Shown: in pieces, positions 1 through 31,214 of the stretch
Numbering within the stretch: the stretch's first letter is position 1
Layout: each line of letters opens with the position of its first letter
Sequence record: NC_027993.1
Length of the DNA stretch: 43,587 nucleotides
Reading direction: 5' to 3' (one strand)
Source: Escherichia phage K1G
The notes under the pieces: generated by a model
Told to the model about the DNA's origin: nothing
Databases searched by the model: none
Seen by the model: the letters and a program-made list of their open reading frames with translations, nothing else
Made by a program: the position numbers and the translations under genes

Positions 1-1251
1 ATGAGTATTCAGCTATCCGCACCGCAGGCGCTGTTCCTGAATTGTGATAACAAATATAAGGCATATGTCGGCGGCTTCGGTAGCGGAAAGACATTTGTTG
101 GCTGCCTTGACCTGCTTACGTTTATGCTCAAGCATCCAGGTACGCGCCTGGGTTACTTCGGCCCGACATACCCGGCTATCCGTGACATCTTCTACCCGAC
201 ATTTGAGGAAGCCGCTAACCTGCTCGGCCTCGATGTGCTGGTTAAATCTGGCGACAAAGAAGTCGTGGTTACTCGCGGTAAGACGGTGCTCGGTACAGTT
301 ATCTGCCGTTCTATGGATAACCCAGGCTCGATAGTCGGCTTCAAAATCGCTGCTGCGGTCGTGGATGAGCTTGATGTATTGAGCCGTGAGAAAGCTGAGC
401 TGGCGTGGAACAAAATTGTCGCCCGTATGCGTCTTGTTATTCCTGGTGTAATTAACCACATCTCTGTCACCACGACACCGGAAGGGTTCAAGTTCGTCTA
501 CGCCAAGTTCAAAGAGAACCCGACGCCGAGTTACTCGATGGTGCAGGCTTCTACACACGAGAACGCGCGATTCCTGCCACCTGACTACATTAGTTCGCTG
601 ACCGAGACTTATCCGGCGCAGTTGATTAACGCGTATCTGAATGGTGAGTTCGTCAACCTTACCTCCGGCAGCGTGTATTACGCATATGACCGCCGTAAGC
701 ACCGCAGCAAAGAGGTAATTCAACCGGGCGACACGTTGTACATCGGGCAGGACTTCAACGTTACGAAGAACGCAAGCGCCGTGTATGTGCAACGTAAAGA
801 CGGCTGGCACGCGGTAGCAGAACTGAAAGGCCTGTTCGATACACCGGATACCGTGCGCGTAATTACTGAGAAGTGGAAGTCGCAGGGCCACCGCATAGTC
901 GTTTACCCGGATGCCAGCGGCAAGAACCGCAAGACCAACTCGGCGTCAATATCAGATATTGCGTTACTCCAGCAGGCAGGTTTCGATGTTCGCGCTAAAT
1001 CCGCCAACCCTCCGGTTAAAGACCGTGTTTTAGCCGTGAATACCGCACTGGAAAAAGGTAAGCTGTGGGTTAACGACCACTTATGCCCTGAGATAGCAAA
1101 GACGCTGGAACAGCAGGCATACGACGATAACGGCGAGCCAGCTAAAGACGGCATTATCGACCATATGGCAGATGCGCTTGGCTATCCTGTAGTTTACGAG
1201 ATGCCGGTGGTTAAACCAGTAATCAACATCCCGGTGACTTTCGCACTTTAA
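1..1251 (+). CDS. terminase large subunit
   Basis: 416-aa ORF with N-terminal Walker A-like GGFGSGKT; immediately upstream of portal; preceded (across the window ends) by a terS-like ORF whose stop would overlap this ATG. Confidence 0.85.
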   Translation: MSIQLSAPQALFLNCDNKYKAYVGGFGSGKTFVGCLDLLTFMLKHPGTRLGYFGPTYPAIRDIFYPTFEEAANLLGLDVLVKSGDKEVVVTRGKTVLGTVICRSMDNPGSIVGFKIAAAVVDELDVLSREKAELAWNKIVARMRLVIPGVINHISVTTTPEGFKFVYAKFKENPTPSYSMVQASTHENARFLPPDYISSLTETYPAQLINAYLNGEFVNLTSGSVYYAYDRRKHRSKEVIQPGDTLYIGQDFNVTKNASAVYVQRKDGWHAVAELKGLFDTPDTVRVITEKWKSQGHRIVVYPDASGKNRKTNSASISDIALLQQAGFDVRAKSANPPVKDRVLAVNTALEKGKLWVNDHLCPEIAKTLEQQAYDDNGEPAKDGIIDHMADALGYPVVYEMPVVKPVINIPVTFAL

Positions 1252-1263
1252 GAGGATTATTCA

Positions 1264-2745
1264 ATGTTAACTATGAACGGTCAGAATCAGGGTGTTAAGA
1301 CAAAACACCGGGAATGGCTGCATCACTTCGATAAATGGCAGAAGGTGCGCCACGCACTGGAGGGTGACCTTATCCGCTATCTGCGAAACGTCGGGAAGAA
1401 CGAGCCGGACCCAACTTATGCAGCCCAGCGCCAGGAAGAATACGAGAACGGCGCTATCTGCTACAATTTCACCAAGCGTACCCTGTCGGGTATGGTTGGC
1501 TCGGTAATGCGAAAAGACCCGGAGCAGATTATTCCACGTGAACTGGAATACCTGTTACGCAATGCCGATGGCTCGGGTGTTGGCCTGTGGCAGCACGCGC
1601 AGGATACGCTGATGGAGATTGACTCGGTGGGTCGTGGCGGTTTACTGGTGGATGCGCCGGAGACAGCGGCAGCGACGGCAGCCGAACAGAACGCCGGATT
1701 ATTAAACCCGGTCATCGCATTCTATACCGCAGAGAACATCATCAACTGGCGACTCACTCGCGTAGGCTCTGTTAACCGCGTTACGATGGTAGTGCTGCGT
1801 GAGGTATGGGAATATTCAGAACCTAGAGCCGAGTTTGAAACCAAGTCTGGGGAACAATACCGCGTTCTCGACTTGATTGACGGGCGCTACCGTCAGCGCA
1901 TATACCGATTCGATGCGGAAGGCGGCGCGCAAGACGAAGTAATAGAAATCTTCCCGGAACTGGGCGAACAGTTGCGCGGTAAAATCCCGTTCACGTTCAT
2001 CGGGGCCAGCAACAACGACGCGACGGTTGATGACGCGCCTTTGCTGCCGTTAGCTGAGCTTAATATCGGGCATTTTCGCAACAGCGCAGACAATGAGGAG
2101 TCCAGCTTCGTTGTGGGCCAGCCAACCTTGTTCATTGCGCCAGGTGAGAACATGAGCATGGCTCAGTGGAAAGAAGCTAACCCTCACGGAGTGCGCATGG
2201 GGTCGCGTTCAGGCCATAACATCGGTTACGGCGGCAATGCGTTTCTGATTCAGGCGGGAGAGAACAACCTCGCCAAACAGAACATGTTGGATAAAGAGAA
2301 TCAGGCAATCCAGATTGGTGCACAGCTTATCACGCCTACGCAGCAAATCACCGCCGAATCCGCTCGCCTGCAACGTGCTGCCGATACGTCCGTAATGGCA
2401 ACCATTGCGCGTAACGTAAGCATGGCGTACACCGAAGCGTTGCGTTGGGTGGCTGCGATGCTGGGTCTACGCGAAGGAACAGAAATTGAGTTCAAGCTGA
2501 ATATGGAATTCTTCCTGCAACCAATGACCGCTCAGGACCGTGCGCAGTGGATGACAGACATTAATGCCGGTTTACTACCGGCAACTGCTTACTACGCCGC
2601 GTTGCGTAAGGCTGGGGTAACTGACTGGACTGACGAGGAGATTACAACGGCTATTGAGGATGCACCTGTGCCGTTAGGCGATGTTACTCAGGTAACTGGC
2701 GAGATTCCGCAGTCGGCGCAACAGCAGGATGCCACCCAGCAATAA
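1264..2745 (+). CDS. portal protein
   Basis: 493-aa ORF directly after terL; RBS AAGAGGA 8 nt upstream; size and position typical of portal. Confidence 0.75.
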   Translation: MLTMNGQNQGVKTKHREWLHHFDKWQKVRHALEGDLIRYLRNVGKNEPDPTYAAQRQEEYENGAICYNFTKRTLSGMVGSVMRKDPEQIIPRELEYLLRNADGSGVGLWQHAQDTLMEIDSVGRGGLLVDAPETAAATAAEQNAGLLNPVIAFYTAENIINWRLTRVGSVNRVTMVVLREVWEYSEPRAEFETKSGEQYRVLDLIDGRYRQRIYRFDAEGGAQDEVIEIFPELGEQLRGKIPFTFIGASNNDATVDDAPLLPLAELNIGHFRNSADNEESSFVVGQPTLFIAPGENMSMAQWKEANPHGVRMGSRSGHNIGYGGNAFLIQAGENNLAKQNMLDKENQAIQIGAQLITPTQQITAESARLQRAADTSVMATIARNVSMAYTEALRWVAAMLGLREGTEIEFKLNMEFFLQPMTAQDRAQWMTDINAGLLPATAYYAALRKAGVTDWTDEEITTAIEDAPVPLGDVTQVTGEIPQSAQQQDATQQ

Positions 2746-14530: not shown

Positions 14531-14722
14531 TCACTTCTCTTTGACATTCGAGTTGCACGCCCAGATTAAGATAAATACCCACGGCAGCAGAACCCAACCA
14601 AGAAACAGATTAGCCATGAATATCGCTAACTTCGCTTTATGGTTACGGAAGTACGCAACCAGGAAAGGCGCGAAATAAGCGAGCAGTGCAAACAGAATTA
14701 AGGAAACTGGTAAACTGGACAT
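14531..14722 (-). CDS. small 2-TM membrane protein, superinfection-immunity-like (Imm-type motif)
   Basis: 63 aa from ATG 14722 (RBS AAGGGG; track ORF starts 15 nt upstream); motif RNHK...NLFLGWVLLPWVFILIWA recalled as typical of Imm_superinfect family. Confidence 0.5.
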   Translation of the reverse strand: MSSLPVSLILFALLAYFAPFLVAYFRNHKAKLAIFMANLFLGWVLLPWVFILIWACNSNVKEK

Positions 14723-14752
14723 TTTAAACCCCTTCATTGTTGGTGTAAGTGA

Positions 14753-24828: not shown

Positions 24829-24854
24829 AAGGCCCCAAACGGGGCCTTTTCTCT
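24829..24854 (+). terminator. rho-independent terminator (convergent junction, bidirectional)
   Basis: AAGGCCCC-AAAC-GGGGCCTT hairpin then TTCTCT. Confidence 0.7.
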
Positions 24855-25172: not shown

Positions 25173-26593
25173 TTCTTACCTCGTCTCTTCATATAATTAA
25201 GCAACTCTTCTTGCACAGATTTCTTTTCGTCAGTACGCGCGGCGACAACCTCGTCCAGCGTGTCTTTAGCAACGATGTGGTACAGGAACACCGGCCTCTC
25301 GTGTCCTGCCTGTTTCTGGCGGACCGGGCCTATTCGCTCGACAACCTGCAAATAGTGCTCAAGGTTCCAGCCTTGCGAGATGAATGCCAGATGATGTCCG
25401 CCGTCCTGTAAATTCAAACCATGTCCGGCCGACGCAGGATGCACGCATAAGATTTCGATTTCGCCGCGGTTCCATGCTTCCATCTGCTTATTACCCTTAG
25501 CACCTTTCGCGAATGCCTGCGCCTGCGGGAAACGTTTCAGGATACGCTCCAGTTCGTGCTTGAACTGATAGGCTACCAGTAGCGGAGCACCCTGTAACTC
25601 CTCAACAATTGACTCCAGCGCATCCAGTTTCATGTCGTGCACTTTCTCCCAGTCTTTGGTTGCTTCTCCGTCTGGCCCTGATACATACACAGCACCAGAA
25701 GCAATCTGCAAACACTTTGACGTCTTTGCCGCGGCGTTAGCCGCTTCAACTTCTCCGCTTTCCAGTTCCGCGAATAACTTTTCCTCCATATCGATGTACG
25801 CCTGACGCGCTTTCTTCGGCAGATCTATTTCAACCGGCACTATAATAGGCGCTTCACAACCGAACCACTCAGCGGCGTCAATCGTGAGACTAATGTCCTT
25901 CATCTTCTGGTGGATCTCATTATCTGCACCAGGACGCGCATGATACTCCCGCGCCATCGCCGACTTACCTTTTTGCACAGAGTTGAACCAGCGGTCGGTG
26001 AACGCAGTGTACGATGAACCGAGGCGCTCGCCAGCGTCGATAAACCAGTTCTGGCCCCACAGGTCTTTGAGGCCGTTAGGCGACGGTGTGCCCGTCAGAT
26101 TGATGAAACGCTTAACTTTACCGAACGCCACTTTGCTGAGCGCCTTTGCCCGCTTGCTACCACCAGAACGGCTACGGAATGACTTCAGTTTCGTACTCTC
26201 ATCTGCAACGATAACCGTAAAAGGCCAGTCGTCTTTGCCGTAGTAGTCAATCAGCCACTCGATAACTTCGTAGTTGGTACACACCACGTTAACATCTGAC
26301 TCCAGCGCCGCGATGCGGCGTTTCTCTGAACCTGTCGCATCTACGACACGCAGGCACGGGAATCGCCATTTCTCTTGTTCTGCCGGCCATGTACCTGATG
26401 CAACGCGCAACGGGGCGAGAATTAACACGCGGTCGTCGTCCGTAAGTTGCCCGTTGCGGAACAGGCGGTTTAAAGTCCACAGGACGCTGCCAGTCTTCCC
26501 GGCGCCCATGCTCGCCCAAATATTACAGCGATGGTGTTGCAGCATGAACGAAGTCATGAGCTTCTGGTATTCGCGCCTTTGAAACTTACTCAT
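25169..26593 (-). CDS. SNF2-family DNA helicase/ATPase
   Basis: motif I GAGKTG, motif II DESTKL, LTGTP; 474 aa. Confidence 0.8.
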   Translation of the reverse strand: MSKFQRREYQKLMTSFMLQHHRCNIWASMGAGKTGSVLWTLNRLFRNGQLTDDDRVLILAPLRVASGTWPAEQEKWRFPCLRVVDATGSEKRRIAALESDVNVVCTNYEVIEWLIDYYGKDDWPFTVIVADESTKLKSFRSRSGGSKRAKALSKVAFGKVKRFINLTGTPSPNGLKDLWGQNWFIDAGERLGSSYTAFTDRWFNSVQKGKSAMAREYHARPGADNEIHQKMKDISLTIDAAEWFGCEAPIIVPVEIDLPKKARQAYIDMEEKLFAELESGEVEAANAAAKTSKCLQIASGAVYVSGPDGEATKDWEKVHDMKLDALESIVEELQGAPLLVAYQFKHELERILKRFPQAQAFAKGAKGNKQMEAWNRGEIEILCVHPASAGHGLNLQDGGHHLAFISQGWNLEHYLQVVERIGPVRQKQAGHERPVFLYHIVAKDTLDEVVAARTDEKKSVQEELLNYMKRRGKK

Positions 26594-27410
26594 TTACGGC
26601 CCCCATAAACGCCTTTATAAATTCGGCGGCTACTTGCGGGACGATGGCATTGCCGTAACCGCGCAATCGTCCCACTCTTGCGGGTATCCCATTAGCCAGC
26701 GGGAATGCGCCGGGTTCAACCGGCCGGAACTTTCCATCACGGCATCCGAGCCAGTCAGCATCTGACCAGAAGCCGTGGTGCGGGTTGGTTGACTCGCTTT
26801 CAATCCCTGCTCTGTTGAGTAGTCCAGCCTGTCGAATGTTCTGTCCCTCCCGTCCGTGCGAATCACTGTCTCTCCGCTCCCTCTGAAGTCGTTCGCTGTC
26901 GGTGTAGGCCAGTTCGTGCGCGCCAAAGAAGAGTCGTTCTCTTTTGTGCGGTGCGCCGACGCTACAAGCTGGGAGTACAGCAAACCCGACGGCGTAGTCT
27001 TCTCCTTCCAGGTGAGCTTGTAAATCGCACATCCACGATTTTGCAATTGCTGCCGCAACCTGCTCCCCAAAGATGACTGGAGGGCGGCACTCGCTGATGA
27101 GGTCGAGGAAGACCGGCGCGAGGTGTCTCGGGTCGAACTGTCCGAGTTGCTTTCCCGCCGCGCTAAACGGTTGGCAAGGCGGGCTTCCCGTCCAGAGAGG
27201 CGCATCTTCCGGAACTCCCGCAAGTCTGAGCGCGAGAGGCCAGCCGCCGATACCCGCGAAAAAATGACACTGGGTGAACCCGTCAAGGTCTTCTGGCTTA
27301 ACTTCGGTAATGCTTCTTTCATCTACAACTCCAAAAGGTATGTGACCCTGTTTTATCAACTCACGCAGCCACGCGGCTGCGCCTTTATCCCATTCATTGT
27401 AATAGTTCAT
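26586..27410 (-). CDS. DNA (cytosine-5)-methyltransferase
   Basis: motif I FFAGIGGW, motif [19 protein letters not shown] (ENV-like), C-terminal GYGNAIVP. Confidence 0.8.
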
Positions 27411-27628: not shown

Positions 27629-27913
27629 CTAACTATAATAGCTAGCTATTAGGTCGTCAACCTGTTTAAACGAACCAACGACAAAAACATTCGCACCACG
27701 TTTACGCATCCGCTCATGTTCCCGTAGCTGGTGCGGGTCTGGCTTCGTGTTCTCGTCTTTCTTAACCTCGACGAACCAGACTATGCCGCCGGGGAGAATT
27801 ACCAGCAGGTCTGGGGCGCCGGAACGCCCCTCGTAGGAGAGTTTGCGAACGAGGCCGCCAAGGGCCTCGAATCGGTCTTTTGCGTATTTCTGTACGCGGC
27901 CCTCTTTAGTCAT
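27629..27913 (-). CDS. VRR-NUC domain nuclease
   Basis: PD-(D/E)xK signature GAPDLLV...VEVKK; ATG at 27913 overlaps upstream stop. Confidence 0.6.
   Translation of the reverse strand: MTKEGRVQKYAKDRFEALGGLVRKLSYEGRSGAPDLLVILPGGIVWFVEVKKDENTKPDPHQLREHERMRKRGANVFVVGSFKQVDDLIASYYS
27632..27660 (-). promoter_or_regulatory. early promoter TTGACG-N17-TATAGT (family 1) with 16-bp perfect palindrome TAATAGCTAGCTATTA in spacer
   Basis: read on minus strand: TTGACGacctAATAGCTAGCTATTATAGTT. Confidence 0.6.
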
Positions 27914-28062
27914 GAGCGTAGATCCCAAGTAAGGAAAGCCCCTCCTAGAACGGCGACACCGACAAACTTAAAGAACAGGCCGTAACAGAACATCGCGGCT
28001 ATTCCTGCACCGAGTAGCAGTGCGAGCATGGTTACTATCACCCGAAATACGAACATTGTCAT
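27910..28062 (-). CDS. small membrane protein (50 aa, 2 predicted TM)
   Basis: strong RBS GGGAGGGG 9 nt upstream of ATG; hydrophobic MTMFVFRVIVTMLALLLGAGIAAMF... Confidence 0.4.
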   Translation of the reverse strand: MTMFVFRVIVTMLALLLGAGIAAMFCYGLFFKFVGVAVLGGAFLTWDLRS

Positions 28063-28144
28063 AATACGCACCCCTCCCGTTTGGTATGCTCAATTCCGCA
28101 GCGCGGGCAGATTCGACAGTCTTCTTCATAAAACCAGTAAATTT

Positions 28145-28276
28145 TCATTCCAGCACCCACAGATAAATTGCGATGAACATGCCCAATATGGCAACCATCA
28201 TGCCGTATTGACCCTCGTGACAGTAGACACCGGCAGCAAATCCCGCCAGTACCGCGATAATCAGTTTACTTGGCAT
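28145..28276 (-). CDS. small membrane protein (43 aa)
   Basis: ATG overlaps 3' end of polymerase gene; hydrophobic sequence MPSKLIIAVLAGFAAGVYCHEGQYGMMVAILGMFIAIYLWVLE. Confidence 0.3.
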   Translation of the reverse strand: MPSKLIIAVLAGFAAGVYCHEGQYGMMVAILGMFIAIYLWVLE

Positions 28277-30446
28277 AACGCTTCATCTCCGCGCCTTCTG
28301 CTACAAGAGGGAACCCCTCGGCCCACTCTGGTAATTCGCACATCAATCGTTCCAGTTCTGCGACATTGTATTCTGGTAAATCTGGTGTCTCGCAGATAAT
28401 CTCATCGTGAACATGAAGCACAATCGGGTAGCCGTTTGCTTCGACGTTCAGCAGTGCATTAGCCAACAAATCACGGCACAGCGCCTGAGTGCAGTTTTCC
28501 ACCAGTTTACCAGAGTAGGTGTACTGGAAGCCCCACTGACGGGTTAACTGGTTTTCGCCCTGGTACTTGATGCGCACGTTGGTAGACACCTTCCCGTCTT
28601 CGTCTGTCTCTTTCGACACGCTTAGCCCAACACCCGGATAAGACATAACGCGGCCCGACGGCAACGTCATCCGCAACCACCAACCGGCGACTTTGTTGCC
28701 GTTGTTGTCCGTTTCTACGTTGCGCGAAAACTTAACTCCCCGCGGCCCTGCGGTGAACTCTTTGCCCGGATTGCGGATAGCTGCCATAGCTGCGTCTTCA
28801 ATATCCCGCCAGAAAGCTACTGTTTCCGGGTGTGACTCACGCCACATACGCTTGATAGCGTCGCAGGTACGCCACACTTTCTTATCAAGAATATAAGATG
28901 GTCGGTCATCATTTTCACCTGGACGTGGTGGTCGCTTGGCTTCCTGAATACGCGCCCACTCATATCCACGTGCGGTAGCAGCCCAGATGTAGTCGGGGAA
29001 AGTCCCGTCCATTGTTTTTGCCATATCAACGAGGTCAAGGCCGAGGTTCTTGGCGAACTGTACGAATGCGCCGACACCACCCGCGTAGCCAAGTCCAAGT
29101 TCGCATGCCTTACCAATCTGGCGTAAGTCTTTACGTTCTTTCTTAATGTAATCCGGCTCCATGCCGAACATCTTGCCTGCGGTTACGCAGTAAATATCCA
29201 GCCCGGCACGGAACGTATCAAGCGCGGTTTCTTCGCCAGCCAGCCACGCCAAACCGCGGCCTTCAACGTTCGAGTAGTCGGCGACGACAAACTTATGTCC
29301 GGCTTCCGGGATAATGCAGCTGCGAACCGTAGATGCCGTTAGCTTGGCTACATCAAAACGGCGATGTGCTCGGCCCTTAAGTAATGCTGAAATACCTTTA
29401 TCCAGTTCATCATCGTGATAGTACCCACGCGCCAGGTTCTGCGGCTGGAAGCCTTTACCCGCAAATCGTAACGTACGTTTAGCTCCACCATACTGGATGC
29501 AACCGCGACGGCGGTCGTCAGACGAGCGGCCTAACAGCAGCGGGTTATATTTCGTTGACGCAGTGGATGCCGCCCCGAGGCGCATTTCTATAATCGTGCG
29601 GGCGTCGTCCGGTAAATCATCGTCAGCAAGCAGGTCGTTAAGCGTAGACTTCTGCGCGTTGTGGATGCGATGCGCAGGTGCCAGTTCACGCAGAATCGGC
29701 AGGAAGTCCTTACCTGTAAGCGAGCCGCCGTATTTACGTTGGGCTTCTTCCTGTAACTGTGCCTTGTGTTTCTCCACAGCTTCAATTGCGGCTTCCGCCA
29801 GCGCAACGTCGACCTTAAACCCGCGGTCGTTAATTAACTGGTCCAGTTCCAGTACACGGTCTTCGAACTCGGAGTTACCCCAACGCGGCAACTTATGGAA
29901 CACTTCACGCATCGCGGTGATGTCGCTAACGGCGTACTTGATGAACAGCGCCCACTCATCCGGGTGCGTTTCAGCAGTGTAGCGGCGAATTTTGTAGTTC
30001 TTCGGCGTCGGTTTAGAGAAACGCTGAATAAGCGCTTTGCCTCGTTTGTCTTTCGCGTTGTCTGCAGACACGCCAAGCACTTCGCACAATGCGTCGAGTG
30101 AACCCGGCAGCGCGTGACGAAACGCCCAAATCATCGTATCAATGGTGTTGCTTACGGGAATATCAAAACCCCAGCAGTGCTTCATGATGAGTCTGTCGAA
30201 CATTGAGCCGTTGTGCCACACCATCTTAATACGGCTGTTTGGTTTCACCAGACGGCGTAACGCGCGGTGCAAATCACCCGGCATGTCGCTGCCGTTGGTG
30301 CAATCCCATACCTGCACAGGCTCGTCGTCAAAAGCATATGTGCAGATTAGAACTTCGGTGGTTGGATGTTCGGCGTAAGCGTAGGAGCCGACTTTCTTCA
30401 AATCGGCTTCGGAGAATGTTTCAAAGTCTAAGAACAGGTAACTCAT
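28266..30446 (-). CDS. family-A DNA polymerase with 3'-5' exonuclease domain
   Basis: N-terminal Exo I motif FLDFETFS, C-terminal motif C HVHDEIICE; 726 aa. Confidence 0.85.
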   Translation of the reverse strand: MSYLFLDFETFSEADLKKVGSYAYAEHPTTEVLICTYAFDDEPVQVWDCTNGSDMPGDLHRALRRLVKPNSRIKMVWHNGSMFDRLIMKHCWGFDIPVSNTIDTMIWAFRHALPGSLDALCEVLGVSADNAKDKRGKALIQRFSKPTPKNYKIRRYTAETHPDEWALFIKYAVSDITAMREVFHKLPRWGNSEFEDRVLELDQLINDRGFKVDVALAEAAIEAVEKHKAQLQEEAQRKYGGSLTGKDFLPILRELAPAHRIHNAQKSTLNDLLADDDLPDDARTIIEMRLGAASTASTKYNPLLLGRSSDDRRRGCIQYGGAKRTLRFAGKGFQPQNLARGYYHDDELDKGISALLKGRAHRRFDVAKLTASTVRSCIIPEAGHKFVVADYSNVEGRGLAWLAGEETALDTFRAGLDIYCVTAGKMFGMEPDYIKKERKDLRQIGKACELGLGYAGGVGAFVQFAKNLGLDLVDMAKTMDGTFPDYIWAATARGYEWARIQEAKRPPRPGENDDRPSYILDKKVWRTCDAIKRMWRESHPETVAFWRDIEDAAMAAIRNPGKEFTAGPRGVKFSRNVETDNNGNKVAGWWLRMTLPSGRVMSYPGVGLSVSKETDEDGKVSTNVRIKYQGENQLTRQWGFQYTYSGKLVENCTQALCRDLLANALLNVEANGYPIVLHVHDEIICETPDLPEYNVAELERLMCELPEWAEGFPLVAEGAEMKRYAK

Positions 30447-30505: not shown

Positions 30506-31132
30506 TTAGCGACGACGACGCTCGCGGCGCGGTGCTTCATCTTCTTCGTCGTCTTCCAGGTCATTTACGCTGGCAGCGACTTTAGAACCGCCAAACGCTT
30601 TACCTTCACCAACGTATTTAATAGCCAGCAGGTTAACGCCGAGGACTTTGTATTTCTGGCTGAACCAGATTTCAACGCTTACGTTAGCGACGCAGCCGCT
30701 GTAAACCTGTTCACCTTCAATCTGTTCGCCGTCTACATTGAAGTCCTGTTCTACCTGAGTCTCGCCTTTTTTAGAGGTTACAATCAGTGGCTGTTTCTGT
30801 GCCTTCGCCTTGAAGTAGAAGCCTTCCGGGAAGTCTTCAAACGGATTGTCGCGCTCGGCAATGTCTTTAATCGCACATTTATCCATGTGCTTACCTTCGC
30901 CGTAGTTGGACTTCATCCACTTCTCAGCGGCAGCTGCGCCCAACGCTTCTTCAACCACAGCGTAAACGGTGTCGTAGAGCGCGTCGATTTGTGCGTGGTC
31001 AGACGGCAGGATGATAGTCGCGCTGTACTGGCCTTTAGTGATTGAGCCATCATCGTTTTCACGGTCTTTTTCGCGTTCGAATACGTTAACCCATGCAGTG
31101 TTTACTTTACGCAGATTCAGTTTAATACCCAT
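30506..31132 (-). CDS. ssDNA-binding protein (DUF2815-like) with acidic C-terminal tail
   Basis: 208 aa, C-terminus DLEDDEEDEAPRRERRRR; adjacent to Cas4-like exonuclease and polymerase as in known phage replication modules. Confidence 0.65.
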   Translation of the reverse strand: MGIKLNLRKVNTAWVNVFEREKDRENDDGSITKGQYSATIILPSDHAQIDALYDTVYAVVEEALGAAAAEKWMKSNYGEGKHMDKCAIKDIAERDNPFEDFPEGFYFKAKAQKQPLIVTSKKGETQVEQDFNVDGEQIEGEQVYSGCVANVSVEIWFSQKYKVLGVNLLAIKYVGEGKAFGGSKVAASVNDLEDDEEDEAPRRERRRR

Positions 31133-31185: not shown

Positions 31186-31214
31186 ACTATAATAGCTAAC
31201 TATTCGGGTGTCAA
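31186..31214 (-). promoter_or_regulatory. early promoter TTGACA-N17-TATAGT (family 1)
   Basis: minus strand TTGACAcccgAATAGTTAGCTATTATAGTT; near-palindromic AATAG-N4-CTATT. Confidence 0.6.

Follow-up and report, generated by a model that had tools for sequence, protein, structure and literature searches.

Three overlapping microgenes between the DNA polymerase and VRR-NUC genes of Escherichia phage K1G: a conserved cysteine-rich frame and two patchily distributed, predicted membrane proteins

What does the short interval between the DNA polymerase gene and the VRR-NUC nuclease gene of Escherichia phage K1G (NC_027993.1) encode, and what could its products do for the phage? The window analysed was the whole stretch of 43,587 nucleotides (nt). 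An earlier note on this DNA had placed in the interval two tiny, translationally coupled membrane proteins of 43 and 50 amino acids (aa) and had related them to superinfection exclusion or host membrane manipulation. As read from its sequence, the interval holds three genuine microgenes, not two, which are named here ORF-A, ORF-B and ORF-C (open reading frames; hereafter A, B and C). The 43-aa and 50-aa minus-strand frames were borne out at 28145..28276 and 27910..28062, while a 29-aa frame between them, B, had been missed; it is the only universally conserved one of the three and it is not hydrophobic. The genes, their ribosome-binding signals and the two flanking genes are the following:

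28145..28276, minus strand: ORF-A, 43 aa, ATG start, MPSKLIIAVLAGFAAGVYCHEGQYGMMVAILGMFIAIYLWVLE, hydrophobic
28059..28148, minus strand: ORF-B, 29 aa, MKIYWFYEEDCRICPRCGIEHTKREGCVL, Cys-rich, not hydrophobic
27910..28062, minus strand: ORF-C, 50 aa from ATG (53 aa from an upstream GTG), MTMFVFRVIVTMLALLLGAGIAAMFCYGLFFKFVGVAVLGGAFLTWDLRS, hydrophobic
28071..28078, minus strand: Shine-Dalgarno (SD) sequence GGGAGGGG, 8 nt upstream of the ORF-C ATG
28287..28290, minus strand: GGAG, probable weak SD of A within the last polymerase codons, 10 nt upstream of the A ATG
28266..30446, minus strand: family-A DNA polymerase (pol), 726 aa, upstream neighbour of the microgenes
27629..27913, minus strand: VRR-NUC / Holliday-junction-resolvase-like nuclease (phrog_93, phrog_5702), 94 aa from the ATG at 27913, downstream neighbour

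The 82 nt that separate A from C are filled exactly by B, with an ATGA stop-start overlap at either end (A/B at 28145..28148 and B/C at 28059..28062). A third ATGA joins C to VRR-NUC (27910..27913), and the ATG of A lies 11 nt inside pol, so that the end of pol and the start of A overlap by 11 nt. This 11-nt overlap and the three ATGA overlaps are all kept in the aligned relatives, and by their overlaps A, B and C are predicted to be translationally coupled genes of one operon. The overlaps with neighbouring stop and start codons that had been proposed for the two hydrophobic ORFs are thus present between A and pol and between C and VRR-NUC, but A and C are not neighbours of each other, B being placed between them. 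Likewise, the very strong ribosome-binding site claimed for the 50-aa ORF does exist, as GGGAGGGG located 8 nt upstream of its ATG, but it lies inside the coding sequence of the missed B, where it is encoded by codons R24-E25-G26. In the genomes without C, the same GAGGGG is found 7 nt upstream of the VRR-NUC ATG. Where an HNH gene is inserted between pol and A (two loci, L015 and L033), A is preceded by an AGGAG or GGAGG of its own, and with 190 nt inserted between B and C, it is GCGGAG that precedes C.

The length of the three frames is not significant in itself, given that 95 ORFs of at least 20 aa were found in the surrounding 6 kb. We compared the loci of nine annotated GenBank phages and of 79 IMG/VR contigs encoding a VRR-NUC relative, and mapped pol, A, B, C and VRR-NUC locus by locus. 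In the 51 loci with A, its length was always exactly 43 aa, and the start was ATG in 50 of them; B, present in 59/59 close loci, was 29 aa long, extended to 32 aa in those in which its end reads on into VRR-NUC; and C had 49-50 aa in 28 of the 28 loci having it. A total of 42, 47 and 26 distinct alleles of A, B and C, respectively, lie behind these fixed lengths and starts. The ratio of nonsynonymous to synonymous polymorphism (pN/pS) was calculated by the pooled Nei-Gojobori method in the own frame and in the two alternative frames, and the variable sites of the microgenes were counted by codon position (1/2/3):

ORF-A: pN/pS 0.22 in its own frame, 1.02 and 2.26 in the alternative frames; variable sites 21/11/27, chi-square p = 0.036
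ORF-B: pN/pS 0.09 in its own frame, 2.95 and 1.16 in the alternative frames; variable sites 8/6/18, chi-square p = 0.021
ORF-C: pN/pS 0.19 in its own frame, 0.90 and 1.60 in the alternative frames; variable sites 19/8/31, chi-square p = 0.001
VRR-NUC: pN/pS 0.175 in its own frame, 1.32 and 2.92 in the alternative frames
pol C-terminus: pN/pS 0.175 in its own frame, 1.44 and 2.22 in the alternative frames

These ratios, taken from aligned alleles, show purifying selection acting on A, B and C with the same strength as on the enzymes at either side. Because the own-frame ratios are low compared with off-frame values of at least 0.9, the third codon position is enriched in variable sites and the lengths are invariant, A, B and C are almost certainly true coding sequences. 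Two other frames overlapping the locus were considered and rejected: a 53-aa minus-strand ORF at 27968..28129, given that the alternative minus-strand frames had pN/pS of at least 0.9, and a 123-aa plus-strand ORF at 28028..28399, given that the observed constraint fits the frames of A, B and C instead. A search of the interval against Rfam gave no family match, the single hit being a sub-threshold long non-coding RNA (E = 0.41).

It must be noted that A, B and C are not new genes; they were previously known and are absent from the reference annotation. The 1.4-kb stretch around them is 99.4% identical to Escherichia phage K1H and matched 448 phage records, nearly all of them Escherichia and Salmonella phages of the Guernseyvirinae (Kagunavirus and Jerseyvirus); the source phage is, to judge from its sequence, a K1H-like Kagunavirus. 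In the K1H RefSeq record, the closest reference, the interval is unannotated, and many Jerseyvirus records have no annotation of B. The same three coding sequences are already deposited as "hypothetical protein" in ULINTec2, Bas70, SHAK7693, SE124_2FR, Sciku and others, and one depositor named an A homologue "TMhelix containing protein". Each of the three matched over its full length a PHROG family whose function is listed as unknown: phrog_10404 for A (E = 4.5e-32), phrog_38225 for B (E = 2.5e-22) and phrog_14925 for C (E = 3.3e-32). What is added here is the third gene, B, which is the conserved one, and the organization of a cassette slot behind it.

With respect to the products, A and C were confirmed as mostly hydrophobic, with grand averages of hydropathy (GRAVY) of 1.35 and 1.62, respectively, both in the top three of the 83 ATG-initiated ORFs of 40-60 aa in the window. 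Their hydrophobic windows of 15-19 residues have Kyte-Doolittle (KD) values of 2.2-2.6 (A, 2.16 over residues 24-42 and 2.6 over residues 28-42; C, 2.49 over residues 8-26), and the Wimley-White octanol free energy (dG) of the best 19-mers is -12.0 kcal/mol for A and -8.5 kcal/mol for C. By these values both carry predicted bilayer-spanning segments and fall in the class of small integral inner-membrane proteins. In A, hydrophobic segments at about residues 5-18 and 26-42 flank a polar loop, the near-invariant Y18-C-H-E-G-Q-Y24 (YCHEGQY), which is its most conserved part; given K4 at the N-terminus, a hairpin with both termini inside would be the simplest reading. C is hydrophobic over residues 8-46 with a single lysine, K32, and contains small-xxx-small motifs (G18AG20 and G35...G40G41). 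AlphaFold2 modelled it as one helix over residues 2-49 (mean predicted local distance difference test (pLDDT) 82.5, and 93-95 in residues 1-20), and one transmembrane (TM) helix in C is well supported, but not a second crossing of the membrane. The earlier description of tiny, translationally coupled membrane proteins therefore agrees with the conserved stop-start overlaps, the strong hydropathy and the AlphaFold2 helix of C.

Two relationships suggested by the sequences were rejected. Paralogy of A and C, to which the shared patterns "AG.AA..(Y/F)C" and "VA.LG..F..LW" could have pointed, had an hhalign probability of 0.5%. The two proteins are not lipoproteins either, since in the lipobox-like positions ([LVI][ASTVI][GAS]C) A has G-V-Y-C19 and C has A-M-F-C26, with Y and F as disallowed -1 residues. 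No homologue of known function was recovered. In a word-indexed search of 5.8 billion proteins, the only relatives of A and C were at least about 73% identical to them and located on 41-45 kb phage contigs. Nothing above threshold was found for A, B or C in Pfam, NCBIfam or PADLOC, and no defence model of PADLOC-DB matched any of the three at E up to 1. With E values up to 1 allowed, the hmmscan of A and C against Pfam gave no more than sub-threshold hits, to EMC6 and SPC12 for A and to PufX for C, the 42-position PF14373 profile not being among them. The PF14373 member that the window does contain, at 14531..14737, is recognized by this same library with 48.3 bits. Neither are A and C members of the lysis cassette: no holin family matched them in PHROGs or Pfam, the holins and the endolysin are encoded at about 39.6-40.6 kb on the plus strand, and the spanins are elsewhere, away from A and C.

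The distribution of the three genes was determined by tblastn against 50,697 phage records, of which about 445-448 were related at the DNA level:

B: 443 records in all; 101 Escherichia-named, 11 Kagunavirus-named, 324 Salmonella-named
A: 222 records in all; 101 Escherichia-named, 11 Kagunavirus-named, 106 Salmonella-named
C: 119 records in all; 59 Escherichia-named, 8 Kagunavirus-named, 50 Salmonella-named

Essentially all Guernseyvirinae records thus have B, about 50% have A and about 27% have C. All four architectures occur (A-B-C, A-B, and both B-C and B with A deleted), and C is present or absent independently of the allele class to which the neighbouring pol C-terminus belongs. Because they are missing from 50-73% of the relatives, A and C are, on this genomic evidence, dispensable accessory genes. 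The loss of A in Jerseyvirus can be traced to a deletion between two TGATTAT repeats, one in codons 5-7 of A and the other in codons 1-3 of B. By this deletion the start and first seven codons of A are joined in frame to B (MLSKLII-YYFxEEDCRICPRCG...), giving a product of 33-36 aa, in eight loci of the Jerseyvirus type (L009, L023, L042, L045, L050, L052, L053 and L057). Since the fusion is in frame, B would still be translated from the initiation site of A that overlaps pol; the phrog_38225 profile itself represents the 36-aa fused form. Besides these, rare frameshift fusions were found in metagenomes, joining A to B in products of 72-73 aa and B to C in products of 68-79 aa, with one to three member sequences each (P0069, P0071-P0073, P0127, P0164 and P0167); natural variation or sequencing error may lie behind them.

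Immediately 3' of B there is a slot in which the occupant changes from phage to phage:

about 28062, minus strand: slot behind B, containing C, a 64-aa soluble protein (with or without C), an HNH gene, mini-TM peptides or nothing (L006-L008, L013, L017, L018, L025, L030, L031, L036, L040, L043, L044, L054-L056 and L063)
64-aa soluble protein: MSNKPFSKKLAALVDMPEWEF...CAGCTHKGVYY...
intact HNH endonuclease, 163-165 aa: Sciku, L043 and L044
HNH relic, 40 aa: phage Jersey
mini-TM peptides: single helices of 23-25 aa

All occupants begin at the same GAGGGGTGCGTATTATGA junction, with the same GAGGGG SD and ATGA start. In the genomes compared, the occupant thereby uses the SD in the last codons of B, and it would pass ribosomes on to VRR-NUC through the ATGA overlap. 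A second homing-endonuclease hot spot appears to be located at the pol/A junction. Two metagenomic relatives have differing HNH genes there (L015, about 873..1637, 231 aa; L033, about 1266..1781, 171 aa), and in this region an "endonuclease VII" gene is also found in Bas73 and Bas74. In distant phages, with VRR-NUC proteins 40-55% identical, none of A, B and C is present, and the pol-to-VRR-NUC junction is empty or occupied by HNH genes or by unrelated small TM or Cys-rich ORFs. Junction proteins of phages with a VRR-NUC about 43% identical (L075 1503..1763, L085 1796..2005, L082 686..1023 and L077 1765..2004) include proteins with a Cys-rich N-terminus and a TM segment (MHCCNCNCNQGRECP...), a pair of TM proteins of 45 and 67 aa and a 79-aa TM protein. 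The content of this junction suggests a repeated recruitment of small membrane proteins.

Regarding B, its sequence points to a separate core factor that probably binds zinc. The motif C14-x2-C17-x3-H21-x5-C27 spans 14 residues, the same as a CCHC knuckle, and its four ligands were invariant in an alignment of 22 variants and near-invariant across the 59 loci, the exceptions being a single Y at position 17 and, at position 21, a Y in one case and a Q in another. At position 11, several alleles have R or F in place of the cysteine. B resembles zinc ribbons and knuckles (CPxCG; retroviral-type C-x2-C-x4-H-x4-C) in having ICPRCG followed by H and C; however, its spacing is x3/x5 instead of x4/x4, and, unlike a zinc ribbon, it has no first CxxC knuckle, C11 being replaceable. 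An exhaustive profile search of 1.84 billion representatives returned its own family and one tandem classical zinc-ribbon protein, to whose second knuckle B aligns, and nothing else. No zinc-finger model of Pfam matched B above threshold, the sequence search against the PDB gave E values of at least 0.3 and the Foldseek search of the PDB with the AlphaFold2 model gave values of at least 4.3, none of them significant. This AlphaFold2 model is of low confidence (pLDDT 63.6) and has a beta-hairpin around CPRCG. A more ambitious reading, that B is a hitherto unrecognized CCHC-type metal-binding accessory factor of replication or recombination, working together with pol and VRR-NUC, whose last codons also act as a plug-and-play expression dock for cargo genes, is doubtful for the present. 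If it were true, B and the slot behind it would be more interesting than the two membrane peptides, and any small gene arriving between B and VRR-NUC would be expressed at once, with the ribosomes handed over to the nuclease gene.

Taking these data together, we estimate a probability of roughly 60% for the overall picture, in which A and C are real, coupled and dispensable membrane-acting accessory proteins that flank the core microprotein B. According to it, ribosomes finishing pol would reinitiate at A, B, C and VRR-NUC in turn, and the peptides would thereby be made along with the replication enzymes. A would form a short helical hairpin inserted in the inner membrane of the host, with K4 and the C-terminus in the cytoplasm and the YCHEGQY loop on the opposite side; C would insert through at least one transmembrane helix, at about residues 8-30. 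Both would be dispensable fitness factors at the membrane of the infected cell. As to which fitness factors, our best single guess, and a tentative one made by analogy, is that A and C exclude superinfecting related phages by blocking DNA entry at the inner membrane. This was ranked first because small membrane proteins with a patchy and independently assorting distribution and under purifying selection resemble exclusion genes.

In this regard, Imm and Sp of the virulent phage T4 (Imm being of the PF14373 type) are small inner-membrane proteins that block the entry of DNA from a secondary phage, an activity reportedly described by Lu and Henning in 1989 (cited in PMC12645636). A and C are like them in being small and non-essential, with two hydrophobic segments and in a virulent phage, but they differ from Imm in having no PF14373 match, in being about half its size and in their location within a replication operon. 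A second comparison is offered by HK97 gp15 and other exclusion morons of siphophages, which act at the inner membrane and block genome injection by related siphophages. Like these morons, A and C are small accessory (predicted) membrane proteins with a patchy distribution; however, the morons are expressed from a prophage and from their own promoter, whereas A and C belong to a lytic phage and are translationally coupled inside an operon. In PHROGs, no similarity between the two groups was found.

Several observations weigh against A and C being membrane exclusion proteins. For full spans, the two hydrophobic segments of A (14 and 17 residues) and the second one of C (14 residues) are on the short side, and the single 48-residue helix without a hairpin in the AlphaFold2 model of C leaves its topology uncertain. 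Searches of PHROG, Pfam, NCBIfam and PADLOC gave no homology of A or C to any exclusion, holin, defence or otherwise characterized family, and a literature search gave no functional data on A, B or C, their translation and membrane insertion being predicted only. A site inside a replication operon is atypical of well-known exclusion genes. Additionally, the window has another candidate for this task in the region of the tail genes:

14531..14737, minus strand: candidate dedicated superinfection-immunity gene, 68 aa, two TM segments, Pfam Imm_superinfect (PF14373; E = 9.3e-13, 48.3 bits against a gathering cut-off of 27.9 bits)

With this gene already present there would be less need for further exclusion genes. 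An Imm_superinfect gene is also listed in the transcriptome paper on a relative (PMC12645636).

The same patchiness could reflect the hosts that each phage has met, if A and C were counter-defence proteins against membrane-associated immunity effectors of hosts or prophages. An accessory arms-race gene would be expected to combine a mosaic distribution with strong purifying selection in the genomes that carry it, as A and C do, and A occurs in 101/101 Escherichia-named and 11/11 Kagunavirus-named records but in 106/324 of Salmonella phages. We consider this unlikely, as neither protein has homology to known anti-defence proteins or a reported link to a defence-related phenotype, and BASEL Kagunavirus isolates with all three ORFs remain highly sensitive to restriction-modification (RM) and variable towards Old (bioRxiv 10.1101/2024.09.12.612763). 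Of similarly low probability is a role in host shut-off or lysis timing as membrane-perturbing peptides, of the type-I toxin or holin/antiholin-like sort. The size and composition of A and C are akin to those of small hydrophobic toxins and holin-like peptides, and the small-xxx-small motifs of C suggest oligomerization; on the other side, dedicated holins, endolysin and spanins are encoded elsewhere, co-expression with the replication enzymes would risk premature killing, and A and C matched no family.

That A and C are embedded in, and coupled to, replication and recombination genes would also fit a role in tethering or organizing the replication machinery at the inner membrane, in the manner of p1 and p16.7 of phi29, which are likewise membrane proteins among replication genes and have been proposed as replication anchors (PMC4974454). 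This is very improbable. The two genes are missing in 50-73% of relatives with the same pol, VRR-NUC and helicase genes, and they are dispensable across the subfamily. Moreover, p16.7 has a sizeable soluble DNA-binding domain, whereas A and C are essentially hydrophobic helices only, with almost no soluble part for binding DNA or protein (the sole polar stretch of A is its 7-residue loop), and the PHROG and Pfam searches gave no similarity to p1 or p16.7. No better placed is the proposal that A and C are passengers without benefit, or relics of homing-endonuclease traffic at a recombination hot spot. HNH genes or remnants are indeed found at the same junctions (after B in Sciku, SETP7-like phages and Jersey; between pol and A in L015 and L033), and the pol-to-VRR-NUC content of distant relatives is highly variable. 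Nevertheless, relics should decay, while A and C retain precisely their length, their start codon and a low pN/pS over 26-43 distinct alleles, and neither of them resembles an endonuclease fragment, the remnant in Jersey being what a real relic looks like. Finally, the view of A, B and C as chance open frames in a spacer or regulatory RNA, in favour of which it can be said that chance alone yields many ORFs of 40-50 codons in this sequence and that K1H RefSeq leaves the interval unannotated, is effectively refuted by the pN/pS and codon-position tests, which point to coding, by the full-length PHROG matches, by the annotation of all three genes by other depositors and by the lack of an Rfam match.

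The three microgenes are therefore real but ordinary, small hydrophobic accessory ORFs of unknown function being common in phages, and the current understanding is not overturned by their finding. Nevertheless, Kagunavirus and Jerseyvirus phages are widely isolated against Salmonella and against K1, uropathogenic (UPEC) and avian pathogenic (APEC) E. coli. If A and C do shape secondary infection, this would be relevant to the design of cocktails with phages of both genera, in which differing A/C combinations might interfere with each other. With respect to annotation, the K1H reference and many Jerseyvirus records omit genes on which selection is evident, among them the 29-aa gene that practically all members of the subfamily carry. 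Insertions are naturally tolerated in the slot behind B, which has a ribosome-binding site at the ready and could serve for the engineering of these small siphophages.

The microgenes belong to a minus-strand gene string ordered as single-stranded-DNA-binding protein (SSB), pol, A, B, C, VRR-NUC, a 63-aa ORF, a C5 cytosine methylase and an SNF2-type helicase. The VRR-NUC protein matched PF08774 of Pfam below the cut-off of that model. The remaining features of the string, the last two given as context only, are these:

30506..31132, minus strand: Enc34-type SSB, in the replication/recombination string
31186..31214, minus strand: promoter-like site TTGACA-17-TATAGT, 11/12 matches, sigma-70-like, upstream of SSB-pol-A-B-C-VRR-NUC
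24829..24848, minus strand: terminator-like hairpin and T-run at the end of the replication operon

The earlier note had spoken of early operons, a putative assignment for this string. In the sole Kagunavirus transcriptome, in which the microgenes are not resolved, the flanking pol and methylase genes fall in the latest-peaking class (PMC12645636). Given that sampling was extended to 120 min in a phage with a 30-min latent period (PMC12645636), this label does not define a clean temporal class. A further promoter-like sequence, TTGACG-17-TATAGT (10/12 matches), is located at 27632..27660 on the minus strand, within the 3' end of VRR-NUC and upstream of the 63-aa ORF, and the phage Jersey record has an annotated promoter at the equivalent position. 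The methylase region contains two long overlapping minus-strand ORFs in different frames, of 274 aa (26586..27410) and 230 aa (26630..27322), both of which are labelled DNA methyltransferase in K1H RefSeq. The Pfam DNA_methylase match is limited to the 274-aa frame (E = 4.8e-17), and the annotation of the 230-aa frame may be artefactual.

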